A DNA stretch of 5,200 bases. It comes from a virus. Shown piece by piece: positions 1-5,200 of this stretch. Below the pieces are notes generated by a model that saw only the letters and a list, made by a program, of their open reading frames with translations, had not been told where the DNA came from and searched no databases. How positions within the stretch are numbered: position 1 is the stretch's first letter; every line of letters begins with the position of its first letter. The stretch spans positions 1 through 5,200 of IMG/VR virus record IMGVR_UViG_3300045988_055167. One strand, 5' to 3'. Made by a program: the position numbers and the translations under genes.

Positions 1-119
1 ACAGACAACTCTCCGCAGGGAAATACTGCCGCCTATTCTCTTACAGCGGATAGCGATGGCTCATTTTTGAAATCGTTTACAGAACATGGTATGGTCATTG
101 GCGTTATGTGCGCGCGCTA
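1..119 (+). repeat. Terminal redundancy, copy 1: identical to 5082..5200. A circular-genome wrap, not a biological DTR.
   Basis: Base-by-base comparison of 1-119 with 5082-5200 shows 119/119 identity. The offset of 5081 nt keeps the VP1 reading frame continuous. Confidence 0.95.
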
Positions 120-558
120 CAAGCATACCTACCAGCAGGGATTAGATAAGCGTTTTACTCGCAAAACGCGTTTTGATTACTATTGGCCGCTTCTTGCAAA
201 TTTAGGAGAACAGCCTATTTTGAACCGTGAAATCTATGCGCAAGGAACTGAAAAAGACGGCGAGGTATTCGGTTATCAGGAAGCATGGAGTGAATACCGT
301 TATAAGCCTGATATTTGTACTTCCGAGATGCGTTCAACTTATCCTCAGTCTCTTGACGTGTGGCATTTTGGCGATAATTACAAAACGCTTCCTACTCTTT
401 CGTCTGGATGGATACAGGAGGATATGAATAATATTAACCGCGCTTTGGCTGTTTCTAGTTCTGTAAGCAATCAGTTTTTTGCTGATATTTATATCAAAAA
501 TAAAGCTACGCGTGTTATGCCTGTTTATTCAATCCCAGGCATGCCAAGGACTCTGTAA
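1..558 (+). CDS. VP1: Major capsid protein VP1, C-terminal 185 aa (continuation of 3960..5081 across the circular junction). Stop TAA at 556-558.
   Basis: Frame 1 is open from position 1. The ORF-track fragment 67..558 (..FTEHGMVIGVMCARYKHTYQQGLDKRFTRKTRFDYYWPLL...NRALAVSSSVSNQFFADIYIKNKATRVMPVYSIPGMPRTL) is typical of the Microviridae F-protein C-terminus. Positions 1-119 are identical to 5082-5200, so this is the same gene as 3960..5200. Confidence 0.9.
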   Translation, partial: TDNSPQGNTAAYSLTADSDGSFLKSFTEHGMVIGVMCARYKHTYQQGLDKRFTRKTRFDYYWPLLANLGEQPILNREIYAQGTEKDGEVFGYQEAWSEYRYKPDICTSEMRSTYPQSLDVWHFGDNYKTLPTLSSGWIQEDMNNINRALAVSSSVSNQFFADIYIKNKATRVMPVYSIPGMPRTL

Positions 559-577
559 GTTTTTGCTTTTTATCTTT

Positions 578-599
578 CGCCCAGGTTGCAACCTGGGCG
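578..599 (+). promoter_or_regulatory. Perfect 22-nt palindrome / stem-loop (CGCCCAGGTT-GC-AACCTGGGCG) 20 nt downstream of the VP1 stop. Possible leaky terminator or mRNA 3' stabiliser.
   Basis: cgcccaggttgcaacctgggcg equals its own reverse complement: 9-10 bp GC-rich stem, 2-4 nt loop. It is followed by acgTTATTTg, which is only weakly U-rich, and then the VP2 RBS. Confidence 0.45.
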
Positions 600-623
600 A
601 CGTTATTTGAAAGGAGATTTAAT

Positions 624-1442
624 ATGGTTGATCCTTTAAAAACTGCTAAGCAGTATGCGGCTTATAATAATTCGTTATATCAGTCTAATACTCGACAGGC
701 TCAAGCGTTCAACGCCGCTGAGGCGGCGAAGAACCGTGATTGGCAGGAGCGTATGTCCAATTCTGCACATCAAAGAGAAGTTGCGGATTTGAAAAAGGCA
801 GGCCTTAACCCCGTCCTGTCTGCAGGCGGTCAAGGTGCCGCTACAGGTTCAGGCGCATCTGCCTCTAGCGAAGCTGCGAATGTAGATACATCGATGCCTC
901 AAGCTGTCATTGACATGGCAGAAGCACAGTTATCTAGTGCTACCGCTTTACAGCAGACCGCAATGACTACGCAGTCTAATATGGCGCAAGCTGTTCTTAA
1001 GTCTAATACTGATAAATATGTTGCTGGTTTACAATACAAGCTTCAAAAATATAAGCATGATAATCCTTCTGCCGATACTGTTGGCGGACAGTTTTCTCGT
1101 TTTCCTGATTTCCTTAAAATTGCTACTAAGTCCACTTTGGATTTTGTTGACTGGGTTGGAAAAGGACTTGAGAAAGCTGGATTTGATACTACTGGTTCCA
1201 AGAAGAAGAAAGCCGTTACAGGCTCTTCTGCTCGTGGTGTTAAAGGTTATAAGAATATTGACGAACTCATTGCTGATATTCCTGTTTACGATGAAAAAGG
1301 TCGTTTGATTTCTGGCGGTAAACAGAGAAAGAATGAAGCTCGCTTGAATCTTGGCTCTAAGTCATCAAATTCACCACTTGGTAGTAAATATCGCTTTGAT
1401 ACAATGGCTAGGTATCGCAGTAGTAAAAAACGTAAAAAATAA
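624..1442 (+). CDS. VP2: VP2 minor capsid / DNA pilot protein (phiX174 H-like), 272 aa
   Basis: ATG 624 with GAAAGGAGAT (AGGAG 612-616, 7-nt spacer). Contains the box WQERMSNSAHQREVADLKKAGLNPVLSAGG, which I recall as the conserved core of gokushovirus VP2. The rest is Ala/Gln/Ser-rich and low-complexity with a polybasic C-terminal tail (SSKKRKK), as is typical of pilot proteins. Position is immediately downstream of VP1. Confidence 0.85.
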   Translation: MVDPLKTAKQYAAYNNSLYQSNTRQAQAFNAAEAAKNRDWQERMSNSAHQREVADLKKAGLNPVLSAGGQGAATGSGASASSEAANVDTSMPQAVIDMAEAQLSSATALQQTAMTTQSNMAQAVLKSNTDKYVAGLQYKLQKYKHDNPSADTVGGQFSRFPDFLKIATKSTLDFVDWVGKGLEKAGFDTTGSKKKKAVTGSSARGVKGYKNIDELIADIPVYDEKGRLISGGKQRKNEARLNLGSKSSNSPLGSKYRFDTMARYRSSKKRKK

Positions 1443-1451
1443 CACGACACG

Positions 1452-1650
1452 ACGAATTAAACGACGTGACGTGAATAATTCGTTTTTATTGATGTTTTCT
1501 AAAACGCAGGACTTGTTCCTGCGTTTCCCCTAGGGGACTGGGGGATGGAGTCCCCCAGCCGGCTCTGCCGGGCACCTTTCCCCTCTTGATGGAAAGGTGC
1601 TAGGTGACACCTAACTAACAGTTAGTGATCACCGCGGTGAGACCGCGCCG
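1452..1650 (+). promoter_or_regulatory. Cluster of at least six stem-loops in the VP2-VP4 intergenic region. Candidate complementary-strand origin and/or terminators.
   Basis: Hairpins read directly from the sequence: 1452-1459/1476-1483 (acgaatta/taattcgt, 8 bp, followed by TTTTTATT). 1502-1511/1517-1526 (aaacgcagga/tcctgcgttt, 10 bp, loop cttgt). Palindrome ccccTAgggg at 1527-1536. 1538-1545/1551-1558 (ctggggga/tcccccag, 8 bp, loop tggag). Palindrome agccggct at 1557-1564. 1572-1581/1591-1600 (gcacctttcc/ggaaaggtgc, 10 bp, 9-nt loop). Composite 1603-1633 (ggtga..ctaact-aac-agttag..tcacc). Palindrome tcaccgcggtga at 1629-1640 and cgcgg-tgaga-ccgcg at 1633-1647. This is a local GC-rich island. 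Confidence 0.55.
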
Positions 1651-1660
1651 TAAGGCTTAC

Positions 1661-1689
1661 TTGAAAATTATAGAAAGGATTGATATAAT
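1661..1689 (+). promoter_or_regulatory. Sigma70-like promoter consensus TTGAAA-N17-TATAAT overlapping the VP4 translation start. Functional status doubtful.
   Basis: ttgaaa 1661-1666, 17-nt spacer, tataat 1684-1689. The predicted TSS (about 1696) falls downstream of the VP4 ATG (1691), which is inconsistent with serving VP4 unless VP4 starts later. May be a chance match in AT-rich sequence. Confidence 0.2.
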
Positions 1690-1690
1690 T

Positions 1691-2701
1691 ATGACGTGCT
1701 ACCATCCATTAAAGGCGTTTGCTACAGGAGAAAGGACTAAAAATGGAAAGATTAGTTATATTGTTACTGGCTACGATGCGCAAGCTATTATCATTGACGG
1801 GAAAGGTCATCGTACTGTGGTTGATTATAATCCTGAGTCTCGTGGTGATAAAGTTCTTCGTGATCCCATAGAGATACCATGTGGTAAGTGTTTTGGCTGT
1901 CGTTTGAAGCGTGCTAGAGATTGGTCTGTTCGCATGATGCTCGAATCAGAGTATCATGATGAAAATTGGTTTGTTACGCTTACATATAATAATGAACATT
2001 TACCTATGAATGAGTATATTGATGATGATGGTGTTATTCAGTTGAAATCTACGCTTTGTAAGCGTGATCTTCAATTATTTTGGAAGCGTTTACGTAAAAA
2101 ACAAGATATCAGATATTATGCCTGTGGTGAGTATGGGACAAGGACTGCGCGCCCTCATTATCACGCTGTTATCTTTGGACTCCATCTTGATCCAGATCGG
2201 CTTGTTGAGTACCGTTCACAACCTTTTCAGTTATGGACTTGTCCTGAACTTGAGGAAATTTGGAAGTGCGGATATGTTGTAGTCGGCAAGGTTACTCAAG
2301 AATCTTGTGAATATACTGCTCGGTACTGCATGAAGAAGCTTAACGGCTCTGCCGCTGAAATTTACGATCAATTTAATTTTATTCCCGAATTTTCATCTAT
2401 GAGTTTAAAGCCCGCGATTGGTCGCCAATGGTTTGACGATCATGCTTTTGATATTTACCCAAAAGATGAAATTCAATTACCTAAAGGACGTTTAGTGACA
2501 CCACCTAGATATTTTGACCAGTGCATGGAAAAATTGGATGAGGATTTGATGGTATCCGTCAAGGATGAACGAAAGGACATCGCCGAAAAGCTTGAGCATG
2601 CTAGACTGCTTGAAACTGCTTTGTCTAAGAGTGATTATCTCAAGGTTGCAGAAGCGAATATGAAGCAAAAAATGAAGCGTAAAGTTCGCCCTCTTGATTA
2701 G
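1691..2701 (+). CDS. VP4: VP4 rolling-circle replication initiation protein (phiX174 A-like HUH endonuclease), 336 aa
   Basis: The ORF track starts at a TTG/GTG at 1625, but the conserved N-terminus MTCYHPLKAF (M-x-C-x-x-P-L) begins at ATG 1691, with AAAGGA at 1674-1679. Zinc-ribbon-like PCGKCFGCRL. RCR motif I FVTLTYN. Motif II PHYHAVIFG (HxH). Motif III EYTARYCMKK (YxxxY...K, dual catalytic tyrosines as in phiX A protein). Stop TAG 2699-2701. Confidence 0.9.
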   Translation: MTCYHPLKAFATGERTKNGKISYIVTGYDAQAIIIDGKGHRTVVDYNPESRGDKVLRDPIEIPCGKCFGCRLKRARDWSVRMMLESEYHDENWFVTLTYNNEHLPMNEYIDDDGVIQLKSTLCKRDLQLFWKRLRKKQDIRYYACGEYGTRTARPHYHAVIFGLHLDPDRLVEYRSQPFQLWTCPELEEIWKCGYVVVGKVTQESCEYTARYCMKKLNGSAAEIYDQFNFIPEFSSMSLKPAIGRQWFDDHAFDIYPKDEIQLPKGRLVTPPRYFDQCMEKLDEDLMVSVKDERKDIAEKLEHARLLETALSKSDYLKVAEANMKQKMKRKVRPLD

Positions 2702-2765
2702 TTTGAATTTTTTCAAAAATAATTATGCCTTAATTATTGATTATAGGAATAGTTTTTGATAAGAT

Positions 2766-2797
2766 AAGAGTAACAAAAATGTTGCTCTTATTTTTTT
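2766..2797 (+). terminator. Rho-independent terminator-like hairpin plus U-tract after VP4
   Basis: aagagtaac (2766-2774), loop aaaaat, then gttgctctt (2781-2789): a 9-bp stem with one G-U pair, followed by A then TTTTTTT (2791-2797). The RBS of the 78-aa ORF starts at 2798, immediately after the T-run, so the terminator must be leaky if it is real. Confidence 0.45.
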
Positions 2798-2810
2798 GAA
2801 AGGAGACGTT

Positions 2811-3047
2811 ATGAATGAAGAGAAAAAAAGTTGTCAGGAAATCGAAGGATCGGAAGTTGTTTCGCCGGACGGCGAACAAGACAAAGAAAATGAACGTCAG
2901 CCCGCCCACCTTCCGTGGAGGGATTCGTTTGTAAATTGGATGCATGATTATGGAGAGTTGATCTCGGAGATTGTCCTGATGTGTTGTGTAGCTGGTGTAT
3001 GTTATTCAATGGTTTGTTTAGTGGAAATCATTTCACTGTTTGCTTAA
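2811..3047 (+). CDS. Hypothetical small tail-anchored membrane protein, 78 aa. Acidic N-terminal domain plus a C-terminal Cys-rich hydrophobic helix.
   Basis: ATG 2811 preceded by GAAAGGAGAC (AGGAG 2801-2805, 5-nt spacer), the same 9-mer seen upstream of VP1 and VP2. The ORF-track start at 2796 is a TTG and less likely. Sequence MNEEKKSCQEIEGSEVVSPDGEQDKENERQPAHLPWRDSFVNWMHDYGELISEIVLMCCVAGVCYSMVCLVEIISLFA. Residues 53-78 form a predicted transmembrane segment. The stop TAA (3045-3047) is immediately followed by the AGGAGG RBS of the next gene, suggesting translational coupling. No homolog recalled. Confidence 0.55.
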   Translation: MNEEKKSCQEIEGSEVVSPDGEQDKENERQPAHLPWRDSFVNWMHDYGELISEIVLMCCVAGVCYSMVCLVEIISLFA

Positions 3048-3059
3048 GGAGGTCTATTG

Positions 3060-3335
3060 ATGAAAAGTCCTATTTTTACTGTAAAAGATAATTTAGTTGG
3101 TTTTAATTCGCCGTATATCCGTATGAATGAACGCGTTGCTATTCGCGAGTTTCGAACTATGATTGATGATCTCGATGATAAAGGCGATCATTCTGTTTTT
3201 GATTTAGGTTTGTACTGTGTTGGTACTTTTGATTTGGAGACAGGTGTTATTGAATCCCATGATCCGCAGGTCGTTCTTCTTGCTACGCAGTGGTTGACGT
3301 TATCTCCTAAAGAGGTAGGTGAGATTGATGATTAG
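3060..3335 (+). CDS. VP5: Conserved gokushovirus small protein (VP5-like), 91 aa
   Basis: ATG 3060 with AAGGAGG at 3046-3052 (7-nt spacer). The pattern IFTVKDNLVGFNSPY...AIREF...DLGLYCVGTFDLETGVI matches the F-x-V-x-D-N-x-x-G-x-F...A-I-R-x-F...P-x-D-F-x-L-x-x-x-G-x-F-D-x-x-T-G-x-I consensus I recall for the small ORF5/VP5 family of Gokushovirinae. Stop TAG 3333-3335 overlaps the VP3 start by 8 nt. Confidence 0.62.
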   Translation: MKSPIFTVKDNLVGFNSPYIRMNERVAIREFRTMIDDLDDKGDHSVFDLGLYCVGTFDLETGVIESHDPQVVLLATQWLTLSPKEVGEIDD

Positions 3336-3870
3336 AACTCTTTTTGGCATTTTGCAGGATATCCCAGAGATGCGCGTTACTGTTTTTTCGTCCGCTGGTT
3401 CGCCTGTTAAAGATAAGTTTATCATGGAGGTTACGTCCAAAGGATATCCGAGTTTACGTAAGACTGGACAGCATAATGTTTATGATGAAATTCAGAGTTA
3501 TCGCGAAGGATGTGACCTTGCGGCAATTCTTCAGTCTTTTGGTAATGAATGTCCTAGGTTTGATCCTCTTTGTTTTGAACAAGCGGAGGCGTTTGTAAAT
3601 GATTTCAGTGATGTTTCTAGTCTCGGCGATCTTGTCAATGACGGTGAAGCTGTCAAACAGTTCTTTAATGAGCTTCCGTTGGAGGTTCGTAACTGTTTTG
3701 ATAATAGCGTTCATAAATTTGCTCGTGATTTTACTGGTGAAGGATTCCTTCAGACTCTTAGGCAGGCGTTTAATGTGCCAGATACTCCAGAGCCTTCCCC
3801 GAATCCTCCGACCCCTAGTGAACTTAATCCTGACAGCGGCTCTGTTGATCCTGATTCTGGCACTGCTTAA
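3328..3870 (+). CDS. VP3: VP3 internal scaffolding protein, about 180 aa, acidic, with a Pro/Ser/Asp-rich C-terminal tail
   Basis: The ORF is open from 3319 (GTG), but ATG 3328 with GGTGAG 5 nt upstream is the preferred start, and the exact start is uncertain. The segment YREGCDLAAILQSFGNEC...FNELPLEVRNCFDNSVHKFARDF resembles the Chlamydia-phage VP3 core as I recall it (FKDECDINQILKKYQRTG...FLTLPAHIREKFGNDP). Net acidic. Lies directly upstream of VP1. Stop TAA 3868-3870. Confidence 0.7.
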   Translation: MIRTLFGILQDIPEMRVTVFSSAGSPVKDKFIMEVTSKGYPSLRKTGQHNVYDEIQSYREGCDLAAILQSFGNECPRFDPLCFEQAEAFVNDFSDVSSLGDLVNDGEAVKQFFNELPLEVRNCFDNSVHKFARDFTGEGFLQTLRQAFNVPDTPEPSPNPPTPSELNPDSGSVDPDSGTA

Positions 3871-3918
3871 TCTTATATTCATTATTATTGTGTTTTCCAT
3901 GTTTTTCATTTTTGGTTA

Positions 3919-3936
3919 AGGGGGCGGAAGCCCCCT
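3919..3936 (+). promoter_or_regulatory. GC-rich stem-loop with a GNRA-type loop (AGGGGGC-GGAA-GCCCCCT) between VP3 and VP1, 10 nt upstream of the VP1 RBS
   Basis: agggggc / gccccct form a 7-bp G/C stem with tetraloop ggaa. It shares the G5/C5 stem character of the 1538-1558 hairpin. Position is just downstream of the VP3 stop; may be a leaky terminator, an RNA stabiliser, or a protein/packaging recognition element. Confidence 0.45.
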
Positions 3937-3959
3937 CTTCCGTATAGAAAGGAGATCAA

Positions 3960-5200
3960 ATGTTAGATAATAACTCAAAATTTAGTTACGTTCCTGGAAC
4001 GCGCGCAAGTCGTTCTATTTTTGATTTGAGTAACAGTGTTAAAACGTCATTCGATGCCGCCCAGCTCGTTCCTTTTTACTATGAGGAAGTTCTGCCCGGA
4101 GATACTTTTAATCTCGAAACGAATCTCATTGCCCGTATGCAGACTCTTGTTGCTCCTGTAATGGATGATCTTTACCTTGATTTCTTCTATTTTTTCGTCC
4201 CTAACAGAATCGTTTGGGATCATTGGAAGGAATTTATGGGTGAAAATACGAAGTCGGCATGGTACCCGGAAACGGAGTACAACGTGCCGCAGATTTCGGT
4301 CGCTCCATCTAAATCTGTAGCCGCTAAGTCTGTAGCGGACTATTTCGGCATTCCGCCGATTACTGTTCCGCAGGGTGAAAAGAACGCTTTCACTTTTTCC
4401 GCCCTTCCTTTCCGCGCCTACGCGGAAATCTGGAATGAATGGTTCAGAGACGAAAATCTGCAGGATCCAGTTCTTGTGGATCACGGAGATTCTACGCATA
4501 CATATGACGCAAATTCCGCTGTAGATGGTGGTGCTTTGCTTTATGCAAATAAGTACCATGACTATTTCACGAGTGCTCTTCCTTCGCCGCAGAAGGGCGC
4601 AGATGTGACAATCCCTATTGGTACTATTGCGCCTGTATATCCTACTAATGCGTCACAGCTCGGTAATGTTGAGAAGACATACCCTGTTTCTGTTCTTGAG
4701 TGGCGTAACTCTAATGATGCTGCCCTTCCGGCTCGTGGTGGTTTAGGTATTTTAGGATCTGGTGCTACTGATCCGTCCGGTTTGGCTGGTGTTACGTTTC
4801 TTGATCAGGAAGATAATGCTGGTATTTCCGGTAGTCCATATCCATCTAATCTGATCGCAGATATCGGATCAATTCCTTCTACATCTATCAATCAGCTTCG
4901 TTTGGCGTTTGCAACACAGGCTCTTTTAGAGAAAGATGCTCGTGGTGGAACTCGTTATCGTGAGATTATTAAGTCTCATTTTGCGACTAACTCCCCAGAT
5001 GCTCGCCAGCAGGTTCCAGAGCTTTTGTCATATAATCGTGTCCCGATCCAGATCAATCAGGTGGTTCAGAATTCGTCTAGTACAGACAACTCTCCGCAGG
5101 GAAATACTGCCGCCTATTCTCTTACAGCGGATAGCGATGGCTCATTTTTGAAATCGTTTACAGAACATGGTATGGTCATTGGCGTTATGTGCGCGCGCTA
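3960..5200 (+). CDS. VP1: Major capsid protein VP1 (phiX174 F-like jelly roll), N-terminal 413 codons. The ORF runs off the window end with no stop and continues in frame across the circular junction into 1..558; 5082..5200 duplicates 1..119. Full gene = 3960..5081 + 1..558 = 559 aa.
   Basis: ATG at 3960 preceded by GAAAGGAGAT (AGGAG 3950-3954, 5-nt spacer). Translation MLDNNSKFSYVPGTRASRSIFDLSNSVKTSFDAAQLVPFYYEEVLPGDTFNLETNLIARMQTLVAPVMDDLYLDFFYFFVPNRIVWDHWKEF... is the highly conserved gokushovirus VP1 N-terminus. No in-frame stop through 5200. The frame is continuous with ORF 1..558 once the 5081-nt period is taken into account. It is missing from the ORF track only because it has no stop inside the window. 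Confidence 0.93.
   Translation, partial: MLDNNSKFSYVPGTRASRSIFDLSNSVKTSFDAAQLVPFYYEEVLPGDTFNLETNLIARMQTLVAPVMDDLYLDFFYFFVPNRIVWDHWKEFMGENTKSAWYPETEYNVPQISVAPSKSVAAKSVADYFGIPPITVPQGEKNAFTFSALPFRAYAEIWNEWFRDENLQDPVLVDHGDSTHTYDANSAVDGGALLYANKYHDYFTSALPSPQKGADVTIPIGTIAPVYPTNASQLGNVEKTYPVSVLEWRNSNDAALPARGGLGILGSGATDPSGLAGVTFLDQEDNAGISGSPYPSNLIADIGSIPSTSINQLRLAFATQALLEKDARGGTRYREIIKSHFATNSPDARQQVPELLSYNRVPIQINQVVQNSSSTDNSPQGNTAAYSLTADSDGSFLKSFTEHGMVIGVMCAR
5082..5200 (+). repeat. Terminal redundancy, copy 2: identical to 1..119.
   Basis: See copy 1. Confidence 0.95.

Follow-up and report, generated by a model that had tools for sequence, protein, structure and literature searches.

The stretch of viral DNA analysed here, referred to as the window, comprises positions 1 to 5,200 of the IMG/VR virus record IMGVR_UViG_3300045988_055167, is 5,200 nucleotides (nt) long, and carries at positions 2811-3047 of the plus strand an open reading frame (ORF) for a protein of 78 amino acids (aa) that is almost certainly a real, expressed gene for a membrane protein. 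This long ORF is overprinted on the gene for VP8, a small gokushovirus protein, which is the older of the two; one ribosome binding site (RBS) is followed by two start codons 4 nt apart, opening two different reading frames, a gene layout that is new. The long ORF is open in all close relatives, and beyond the end of VP8 it continues into a conserved hydrophobic segment. Its product is the best candidate for the means by which this virus of gut bacteria attacks the membrane of its host, and might serve to burst the cell.

A preliminary description, made from the letters of the window, had placed a 78 aa ORF here, and its boundaries stand, with an ATG at 2811 and a TAA stop codon at 3045-3047. 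Both of the signals that had been attached to it were also recovered. Upstream is a single Shine-Dalgarno sequence for the two start codons, GAAAGGAGA (2798-2806, plus strand), shared, as had been stated, with VP1 and VP2: the 9-mer is present exactly three times in the window, the other copies lying at 609, before VP2, and 3947, before VP1, when 0.06 occurrences would be expected by chance, and none of 200 shuffled sequences contained three. Measured from AGGAGA, the spacing is 4 nt to the ATG at 2811, as it likewise is for VP1, and 8 nt to the VP8 start at 2815. At the other end, the stop codon had been described as overlapping the RBS of the next gene; the TAA does lie within TAAGGAGG (3045-3052, plus strand), the VP5 RBS, and this fusion of stop and RBS is invariant in 15 relatives.

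The second ORF, contained within the long one, occupies 2815-2934 of the plus strand, with 39 codons in a frame shifted by +1 and a start 4 nt after the ATG at 2811; it encodes MKRKKVVRKSKDRKLFRRTANKTKKMNVSPPTFRGGIRL. This basic 39 aa translation matches phrog_10695 over its full length (residues 1-39 of 39, E = 7.7e-8), and a tblastn search located it in 361 microvirus records, in many of which it is labelled 'DNA binding protein'. The motif F.RTA...N...RGGIRL is also present in the VP8 of distant gokushoviruses, alignment with which leaves F16, A20, N27, R34, G35, G36, R38 and L39 invariant. Sequence similarity of this kind identifies the ORF as gokushovirus VP8, a DNA-binding packaging protein and the functional counterpart of phiX174 J. 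In the distant gokushoviruses the VP8 gene immediately precedes VP4 and is free of any overprint. The earlier remark that no conserved microvirus protein could be recognised is right for the 78 aa product, which belongs to no described microvirus protein family, but wrong for the locus, where the conserved VP8 had been missed.

Relatives were gathered in three ways, via the 78 aa protein, via VP4 and, to counter ascertainment bias, via VP5, yielding 19 distinct sequences. The long ORF is full length in 69 protein clusters of 65-100% identity, and intact in all 11 loci retrieved independently via VP4 or VP5. Absence from close relatives had been named beforehand as an outcome that would point to a chance ORF; positional equivalents were found in every one of them. 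The long frame opens with ATG or GTG in every case, and its start precedes that of VP8 by exactly 4 nt, in the variants ATGAATG, GTGAATG, ATGTGTG, GTGTGTG and ATGAGTG, and no start codon is present 4 nt upstream of VP8 in 11 related microviruses in which this gene is not overprinted.

Given the VP8 protein and the codon usage of the genome, 4.8 stop codons would be expected in the long frame across the overlap, and simulation put the probability of its being open at 0.0008. Wobble positions in the window genome are strongly T-biased; T was nevertheless found at none of the 147 stop-risk wobble sites of VP8, compared with 119 of 290 harmless sites (41%). The same class of site carries T in 65% of cases in the other genes of the window genome, and in 59% in the 11 relatives with a VP8 that is not overprinted, where the corresponding frame has between one and eight stops. 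A per-site count, which is robust to the relatedness of the sequences, gave T at none of nine risk sites and at 15 of 18 safe sites (p = 5e-5). Codons within the overlap also covary in pairs, GAT being found only with CGN, GAC with AGR and TTT only with CGC. The three controls exclude a context effect as the cause of the avoidance of T, and the avoidance of stops extends from codon 7 to codon 28 of VP8. On these codon statistics the long frame is held open by selection, and 2811-3047 is a genuine overprinted gene; the locus illustrates how comparative codon statistics can verify such a gene, with a clean internal negative control.

The alternative is a chance ORF, the tail of which would be conserved as a cis-acting DNA or RNA element. 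Alternative frames in this genome are often long and hydrophobic because the wobble positions are T-rich, as in the case of a 96 aa alternative-frame ORF in VP2 (1018-1308), which is not conserved and was dropped as a candidate, being broken in several relatives. For the long ORF, the simulation, the site-level tests and the negative control, in that stop avoidance is absent from the relatives lacking the ORF, effectively refute such an origin, and the variation in the tail described below is likewise not that of a nucleotide element.

The selective regime differs sharply between the two parts of the gene. Changes in the overlap are synonymous for VP8: the ratio of non-synonymous to synonymous polymorphism (pN/pS) stands at 0.06 in its frame, as against 2.45 in that of the long ORF, the same pattern as has been reported for overprinted genes of phiX174 (PMC9865509). 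The wobble diversity of VP8 (0.378) matches that of VP5 (0.359), hence the N-terminal part of the long ORF is without constraint at the amino acid level, and 2811-2934 (plus strand) can be described, from pN/pS, wobble diversity and the structural model, as a dual-coding zone specifying a leader that is free of constraint except for the exclusion of stops. The preliminary description had seen an acidic N-terminal domain in this region. Residues 1-46 of the window protein do have a net charge of -7, but the acidity is not conserved, the charge of the N-terminal part ranging from +1 to -7 across 19 homologues, and a pN/pS of 2.45 is not that of a domain: the 'acidic domain' is the Lys/Arg-rich VP8 gene read off-frame.

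Past the VP8 stop codon, the tail Y47-F77, YGELISEIVLMCCVAGVCYSMVCLVEIISLF (2949-3041, plus strand), is near-invariant in 25 aligned proteins, and its hydrophobic core, I54-V71, is encoded by 2970-3023. Diversity at the three codon positions of the long frame is 0.147, 0.085 and 0.344, including switches between the TCN and AGY codons of serine, and pN/pS over the 32-codon tail is 0.27 (0.12 in the core clade), as against values of about 1 in the two other frames (0.96 and 1.36), which contain stops. Variation concentrated at third positions and a low pN/pS indicate that the tail is protein-coding and under purifying selection; a role as a DNA or RNA element is ruled out by variation that is synonymous with a three-base period. 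All three subfamilies have kept an acidic juxtamembrane motif, Y-x-E-L-[IL]-[ST]-E-I, an unbroken hydrophobic core of about 18 residues with small residues (AG or GG), and a short end, [IL]-S-L-x. The tail has four cysteines in the core clade, one in the relative L031 and none in L030, so the Cys-rich C-terminal hydrophobic helix of the preliminary description survives as a helix, and as a helix with four cysteines in this protein, but not as a Cys-rich family. Selection for an acidic N-terminal domain or for cysteines was ruled out, neither being conserved. The locus therefore has what is looked for in an overprinted gene: a frame open beyond chance, an older frame under purifying selection, a start of its own behind a consensus RBS, and a tail selected as protein.

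The stop deficit, the avoidance of T, the conserved start and the lack of conservation of Met44 together indicate initiation at the upstream start codon. Were only a hydrophobic peptide of about 35 aa made, by reinitiation at the internal ATG 2940 after the VP8 stop with everything upstream untranslated, this would explain why Met44 does not vary in the 25 core-clade proteins although its neighbours do, and why ATG 2940 lies 5 nt after the VP8 stop; it would also accommodate the records MG945526 and MG945242, in which VP8 is followed by a transmembrane (TM) stretch in the corresponding frame, preceded by stops. These two have no usable start codon for that stretch, and, being ambiguous, were left out of the counts. 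However, Met44 is Ile in the diverged relatives L030 and L031, stop avoidance spans the whole overlap, the upstream start is always conserved, the sole indel between the VP8 stop and Met44 is of 12 nt and keeps the frame, and no conserved RBS precedes 2940 at a suitable spacing. Exclusive use of Met44 as start is accordingly disfavoured, and we consider it very unlikely; a short isoform may be produced alongside the long one. An insertion of 12 nt, in frame between 2930 and 2931, is a near-duplication of TTTGTAAATTCT at the VP8 stop, and gives rise to 82 aa variants of the long ORF (L001, L021-L023, L032 and L038).

A second route to the tail would be a -1 ribosomal frameshift within VP8, producing a VP8-TM fusion with, as in MS2 L, a basic N terminus and a hydrophobic C terminus. 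The long frame is indeed the -1 frame of VP8, and an A-run, ACAAAAAAAATG, is present at VP8 codons 23-25 in some relatives. The run is not conserved, though, with Lys codons varying freely between AAA and AAG, and stop avoidance is also evident upstream of any slip site, in addition to which a dedicated start is conserved. With no conserved slippery site, and with stop avoidance starting near the 5' end of the overlap, such a fusion is highly improbable.

In the 78 aa product, the Kyte-Doolittle maximum over 19 residues is 2.26, at residues 56-74, and four cysteines lie within the last 30 residues. AlphaFold2, supplied with the 25-sequence alignment, left residues 1-34 disordered, with a predicted local distance difference test score (pLDDT) of about 47, below 50, and returned a single helix over residues 35-77, with pLDDT of about 90 or higher at 51-78. 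As a disordered leader dictated by VP8 is followed by a conserved segment that forms one hydrophobic helix, the product is predicted to be a tail-anchored single-pass membrane protein, of which the C-terminal helix would be the active part.

The family to which this protein belongs is a narrow one. The 78 aa product has no significant match in Pfam, PHROGs, NCBIfam, PADLOC or the PDB, nor in a tblastn search of 50,697 phage records; a profile search of 1.84 billion representatives returned only three real clusters at 50% identity, P0108 and P0109 appearing to be spurious. Only two relatives were found in IMG/VR, no copy of the gene in the GTDB species-representative genomes, and no earlier description of it in the literature searched. 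The family is limited to a clade of microviruses that infect gut Clostridia and integrate at dif-like sites. So restricted a distribution fits an accessory rather than a core function, and one could envisage a non-lytic role akin to that of phiX174 K, in modulating burst size, anchoring replication or assembly at the membrane, or tuning VP8 through competition between starts. The K protein is also small, overprinted, membrane-associated and non-essential, and two starts spaced so closely (4 nt) are bound to compete for ribosomes. Yet pure regulation cannot explain the strong purifying selection on the amino acids of the 32-codon tail, and nothing links the protein to replication or assembly; we regard this account as unlikely.

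The window represents a whole circular microvirus genome of 5,081 nt, with a terminal redundancy of 119 nt (5082-5200 being the same as 1-119), and no close relative of it was found among the 50,697 deposited phage records. Its genes, all on the plus strand, are those of a gokushovirus: VP1, running from 3960 across the circle junction to 558 without internal stops, the homologue of which in relatives matches Phage_F; VP2 (624-1442), with matches to PHROGs pilot-protein families; the replication initiator VP4 (1691-2701; phrog_942, E = 2.5e-116); VP5 (3060-3335; Pfam Phage_ORF5, E = 6.3e-15), starting at ATG 3060; and the scaffold VP3 (3328-3870; Pfam Chlamy_scaf). One relative, L001 (IMGVR_UViG_3300008360_000151), has a VP4 that is 99% identical to that of the window and an identical intergenic region, but a long ORF that is only 73% identical, a mosaicism which implies a recombination breakpoint near the VP8 start.

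Complete prophages of the clade were found in two long contigs (572 kb and 34 kb), flanked by a gene for a LysM-domain protein and by a DUF4854/RuvX/IreB/AlaS block, and the related genome L053 provides the corresponding empty integration site (~17855-17885). Comparison of the prophage junctions in L019 (~7925-7960 and 12930-12965) with this empty site and with the circular genome defines a dif-like phage attachment site (attP) at 2721-2754, directly 5' of the gene pair. Its right arm, GATTATAGGAATAGTT, is the same as in the host site, which the junctions show to be AACTATTCC-N-GGAATAGTT, a dif-like palindromic sequence. The clade is temperate and integrates at a dif-like site. The flanking host gene has 95% identity to a gene of an uncultured Clostridia metagenome-assembled genome, and 72-83% identity to homologues in Lentihominibacter, Anaerovorax and other Anaerovoracaceae, indicating that the host is a Gram-positive-type gut Clostridium (Clostridia, Anaerovoracaceae). 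Solid cases of microviruses in hosts of the Gram-positive type are few, and this is one of them, microviruses of Gram-positive bacteria having first been reported only in 2022 (PMC9239249). The same host flank, on the DUF4854 side, is next to the long ORF end of the prophage in L028 (1-1590) and next to the VP4 end in L019 (12930-13000), implying that a related phage has integrated there the other way round, or in another arrangement.

Between attP and the gene pair is a conserved hairpin followed by a run of seven T residues (2755-2800, plus strand), terminator-like in form and ending at the RBS. Its predicted free energy is -18.1 kcal/mol (z = -5.98), a stability equalled by none of 200 shuffled sequences, and compensatory changes in the stem are seen in L018 and L027; it goes unlisted in a simple terminator scan, its stem being poor in G-C pairs. 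It is probably the terminator of VP4, and would insulate the prophage from host read-through. If it does act as a terminator, VP8 and the long ORF must be transcribed through it. An extra small acidic ORF is found directly 5' of the dual start (at the equivalent of ~2797/2798) in L002, L018, L029, L032 and L038, in L015 and L033-L037, and in L024; these ORFs end at the start of the long ORF or a few bases into it, examples being MEYDYEFDDFVDWMHDLIEEGVYGE, a 47 aa ORF beginning MEVKLVFNDETRQYEV, and one of 54 aa in L024.

The temperate lifestyle, with prophages at a dif-like site and an empty site for comparison, raises the prospect of a benefit to the lysogen, such as superinfection exclusion: small amounts of a membrane protein made from the prophage or a resident circle would block the entry of related phage DNA. 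Small single-pass membrane proteins are common as phage exclusion factors. Carriage of gokushoviruses does confer superinfection immunity, the mechanism of which is unexplained, but the immune enterobacterial gokushoviruses have a six-gene arrangement in which no such gene has been described (PMC7062461). Furthermore, an RBS in common with a structural gene, behind a terminator-like hairpin, is not the layout of a constitutive immunity gene, and the product has no match in PADLOC. We therefore think exclusion unlikely.

The reading that we put first, tentatively and by analogy, is that the 78 aa protein may be the lysis protein of the virus. The single RBS at 2798-2806 serves both starts: ribosomes initiating at ATG 2815 produce VP8, and those initiating at ATG 2811 read, in the other frame, a disordered leader of ~46 residues dictated by VP8 and selected only against stops, before going on for 37 codons beyond the VP8 stop through the conserved helix segment Y47-F77. 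A membrane protein would in this way be made late in infection, at a fixed ratio to VP8, and would be expected to accumulate in the cytoplasmic membrane of the Gram-positive host and damage the envelope, releasing the progeny. Two routes can be pictured. The protein might bind to a step in the supply of cell-wall precursors that is embedded in the membrane, like phiX174 E and the Sgl proteins of leviviruses; or it might oligomerise and depolarise the membrane, an event that unleashes autolysins in Gram-positive bacteria. Coupling to an abundant late structural gene could provide a simple accumulation timer.

Several observations are consistent with a lytic function. In the smallest phages, the single-gene lysis proteins characterised so far are all small, overprinted and of the TM type. 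No homologue of a lysis protein or peptidase was detected among the window genes scanned against Pfam and PHROGs. Gokushovirus-like microviruses are among the most abundant phages of the gut virome, and have been reported to be without an inhibitor of peptidoglycan synthesis, their lysis gene being unidentified (PMC7062461); the locus offers a concrete candidate for a membrane-acting, possibly lytic, protein in phages of Gram-positive anaerobes. Experiments on MS2 L have shown that its N-terminal half, encoded within a coding overlap, can be dispensed with, the activity residing in the C-terminal 35 residues (PMC10688784); the pattern of constraint found here (pN/pS of 2.45 in the leader and 0.12-0.27 in the tail) agrees with this.

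The architecture recurs in a second family, which speaks for the reality of the gene. In Dulem virus 193 (PP511346.1, L122), an 88 aa ORF at 555-821 lies over a VP8 gene (559-678) whose product is 72% identical to that of the window. As in the window, there are two starts 4 nt apart (ATGGATG), VP8 is read through in its -1 frame, and a TM tail is encoded ahead of VP5. The frame is again open beyond expectation, with a probability of 0.0015, and T is present at none of seven risk sites compared with 10 of 19 elsewhere. Its TM segment has a Kyte-Doolittle value of 2.86, and its family consists of 14 clusters with a variable N-terminal part and a conserved tail. Unlike that of the window, this tail has a basic stretch before the TM segment and a charged C-terminal end, ELKGVRF, and the two sequences are unrelated (BLASTP E = 6.2). 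In the record, the 88 aa ORF is annotated 'hypothetical protein' and VP8 is not annotated; in the clade of the window, too, public gene calls give the long ORF and no VP8. Gene callers report just one of two overlapping genes, and pipelines systematically miss either the long ORF or VP8.

The interval between VP8 and VP5 is a variable accessory slot in gut gokushoviruses, a Peptidase_M15_3 domain occupying it in Dulem virus 195 and Dulem virus 189. In Dulem virus 195 (PP511409, L128 975-1358) the match has an E value of 1.5e-25. In other genomes the slot holds unrelated soluble ORFs of 43-83 aa, and in many nothing, the loci compared being L119, L128 and L129-L135. An enzyme of the Peptidase_M15_3 class has been proposed as a microvirus endolysin by Roux et al. 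(PMC3394797), and the presence of a putative endolysin-type peptidase in the same slot of a relative would lend the lysis reading indirect support. Unrelated TM tails on one architecture would also fit a fast, host-specific turnover of lysis genes.

A number of points weigh against this interpretation. Single-gene lysis proteins are not known from Gram-positive hosts, and in the databases searched the 78 aa protein resembles no lysis protein or holin, whether by sequence or by profile. The gokushoviruses of enterobacteria are able to lyse cultures although they have no gene of this kind (PMC7062461), hence the lysis function may reside elsewhere in the core genome. As the VP8-VP5 slot of other relatives is empty or holds unrelated small soluble ORFs, location by itself carries little weight. 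The helix has an acidic flank on its N side and an uncharged one on its C side, meaning that a topology cannot be assigned. A strong RBS shared with a virion protein needed in many copies might overproduce a toxic product unless the choice of start is strongly biased. Finally, a second hydrophobic alternative-frame ORF, at 3599-3919, could be the lysis gene instead.

This second ORF encodes a very hydrophobic product of 106 aa in the +1 frame of VP3 on the plus strand, and extends 49 nt beyond the VP3 stop. In 16 of 16 distinct relatives it is open, with its ATG and stop conserved; GGAGG or GGAAGG is located 9-10 nt upstream, and stops are present at none of 113 risk codons, compared with 24% in control genes. 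Against it, the frame is hydrophobic and stop-poor by composition, such that the probability of its being open by chance is 0.08, and diversity by codon position gives no sign of constraint at the amino acid level, the short unique tail being conserved at the nucleotide level. The case for a second overprinted gene, and hence for a rival lysis or membrane candidate, is of moderate strength; its location inside VP3 resembles that of E inside D in phiX174.

A wider proposal, which is more doubtful than the lysis reading itself, is that the 78 aa protein could be the lysis effector of microviruses of Gram-positive gut Clostridia, and the first single-gene lysis protein known to act on a Gram-positive envelope, with the VP8 gene serving as a recurrent 'nursery' in which different lineages, represented by the clades of the window and of Dulem virus 193, have each fitted a membrane-active tail of their own to one and the same dual-start overprint. 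Should the protein prove lytic, its conserved helix of 32 residues would single out a membrane target at which Clostridia are vulnerable.

Among known systems, the family of phiX174 J and gokushovirus VP8 includes the overlapped ORF at 2815-2934 but not the 78 aa product. Comparison with holins, in which one or more TM domains are followed by a charged, hydrophilic C-terminal end and an endolysin gene lies alongside, is unfavourable, the protein ending 3-7 residues past the helix with no basic residues, and no endolysin or peptidase domain being found in the window genes scanned against Pfam and PHROGs. The preliminary description had likened the architecture to that of MS2 L, of the Fiersviridae. 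As a layout the likeness holds: both proteins are of ~75 aa, with an N-terminal half that is encoded within a coding overlap, dispensable in MS2 L and unconstrained here, and with a TM part at the C terminus, the seat of activity in MS2 L and the conserved portion here. As membership it does not, in the absence of sequence similarity. The N-terminal part of MS2 L is basic, and its hydrophobic domain is followed by a conserved Leu-Ser dipeptide; the N-terminal charge of the window protein is -7 (+1 to -7 in the 19 homologues), and there is no LS in the core-clade YGELISEIVLMCCVAGVCYSMVCLVEIISLF, the dipeptide occurring only in L030 and L031, at non-equivalent positions. MS2 is a single-stranded RNA phage with Gram-negative hosts, whereas the window is a microvirus of a Gram-positive host, and the L gene overlaps its coat and replicase neighbours and relies on the translation of coat; the long ORF, by contrast, has a dedicated start sharing the VP8 RBS. 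Expression of MS2 L causes lysis, which the host DnaJ modulates.

The lysis protein E of phiX174 (Bullavirinae) is, like the window protein, a small microvirus protein with a single TM segment, its gene lying in an alternative frame of one for morphogenesis. In E, sequence is critical in the TM part only; the protein inhibits MraY and requires SlyD. E has an N-terminal TM segment with an essential proline and lies wholly inside the scaffold gene D, whereas the window protein has a C-terminal TM segment (residues 54-71) with no proline, its gene overprints the J-like VP8 and extends beyond it, and its host is Gram-positive. The product did not match the Pfam family of E, Microvir_lysis, its only Pfam match being a chance-level one to Btz (E = 0.066), below the cut-off. 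Judged by these comparisons, the 78 aa product is not a member of either the MS2 L or the phiX174 E family. With phiX174 K it shares being small, overprinted and hydrophobic; K is a non-essential accessory protein whose burst-size function is itself poorly defined, and it overlaps genes A and C and has no sequence similarity to the window protein. Hence the product takes its place beside these proteins as an overprinted small membrane protein of a minimal phage, set apart by its unusual layout of one RBS and two starts.

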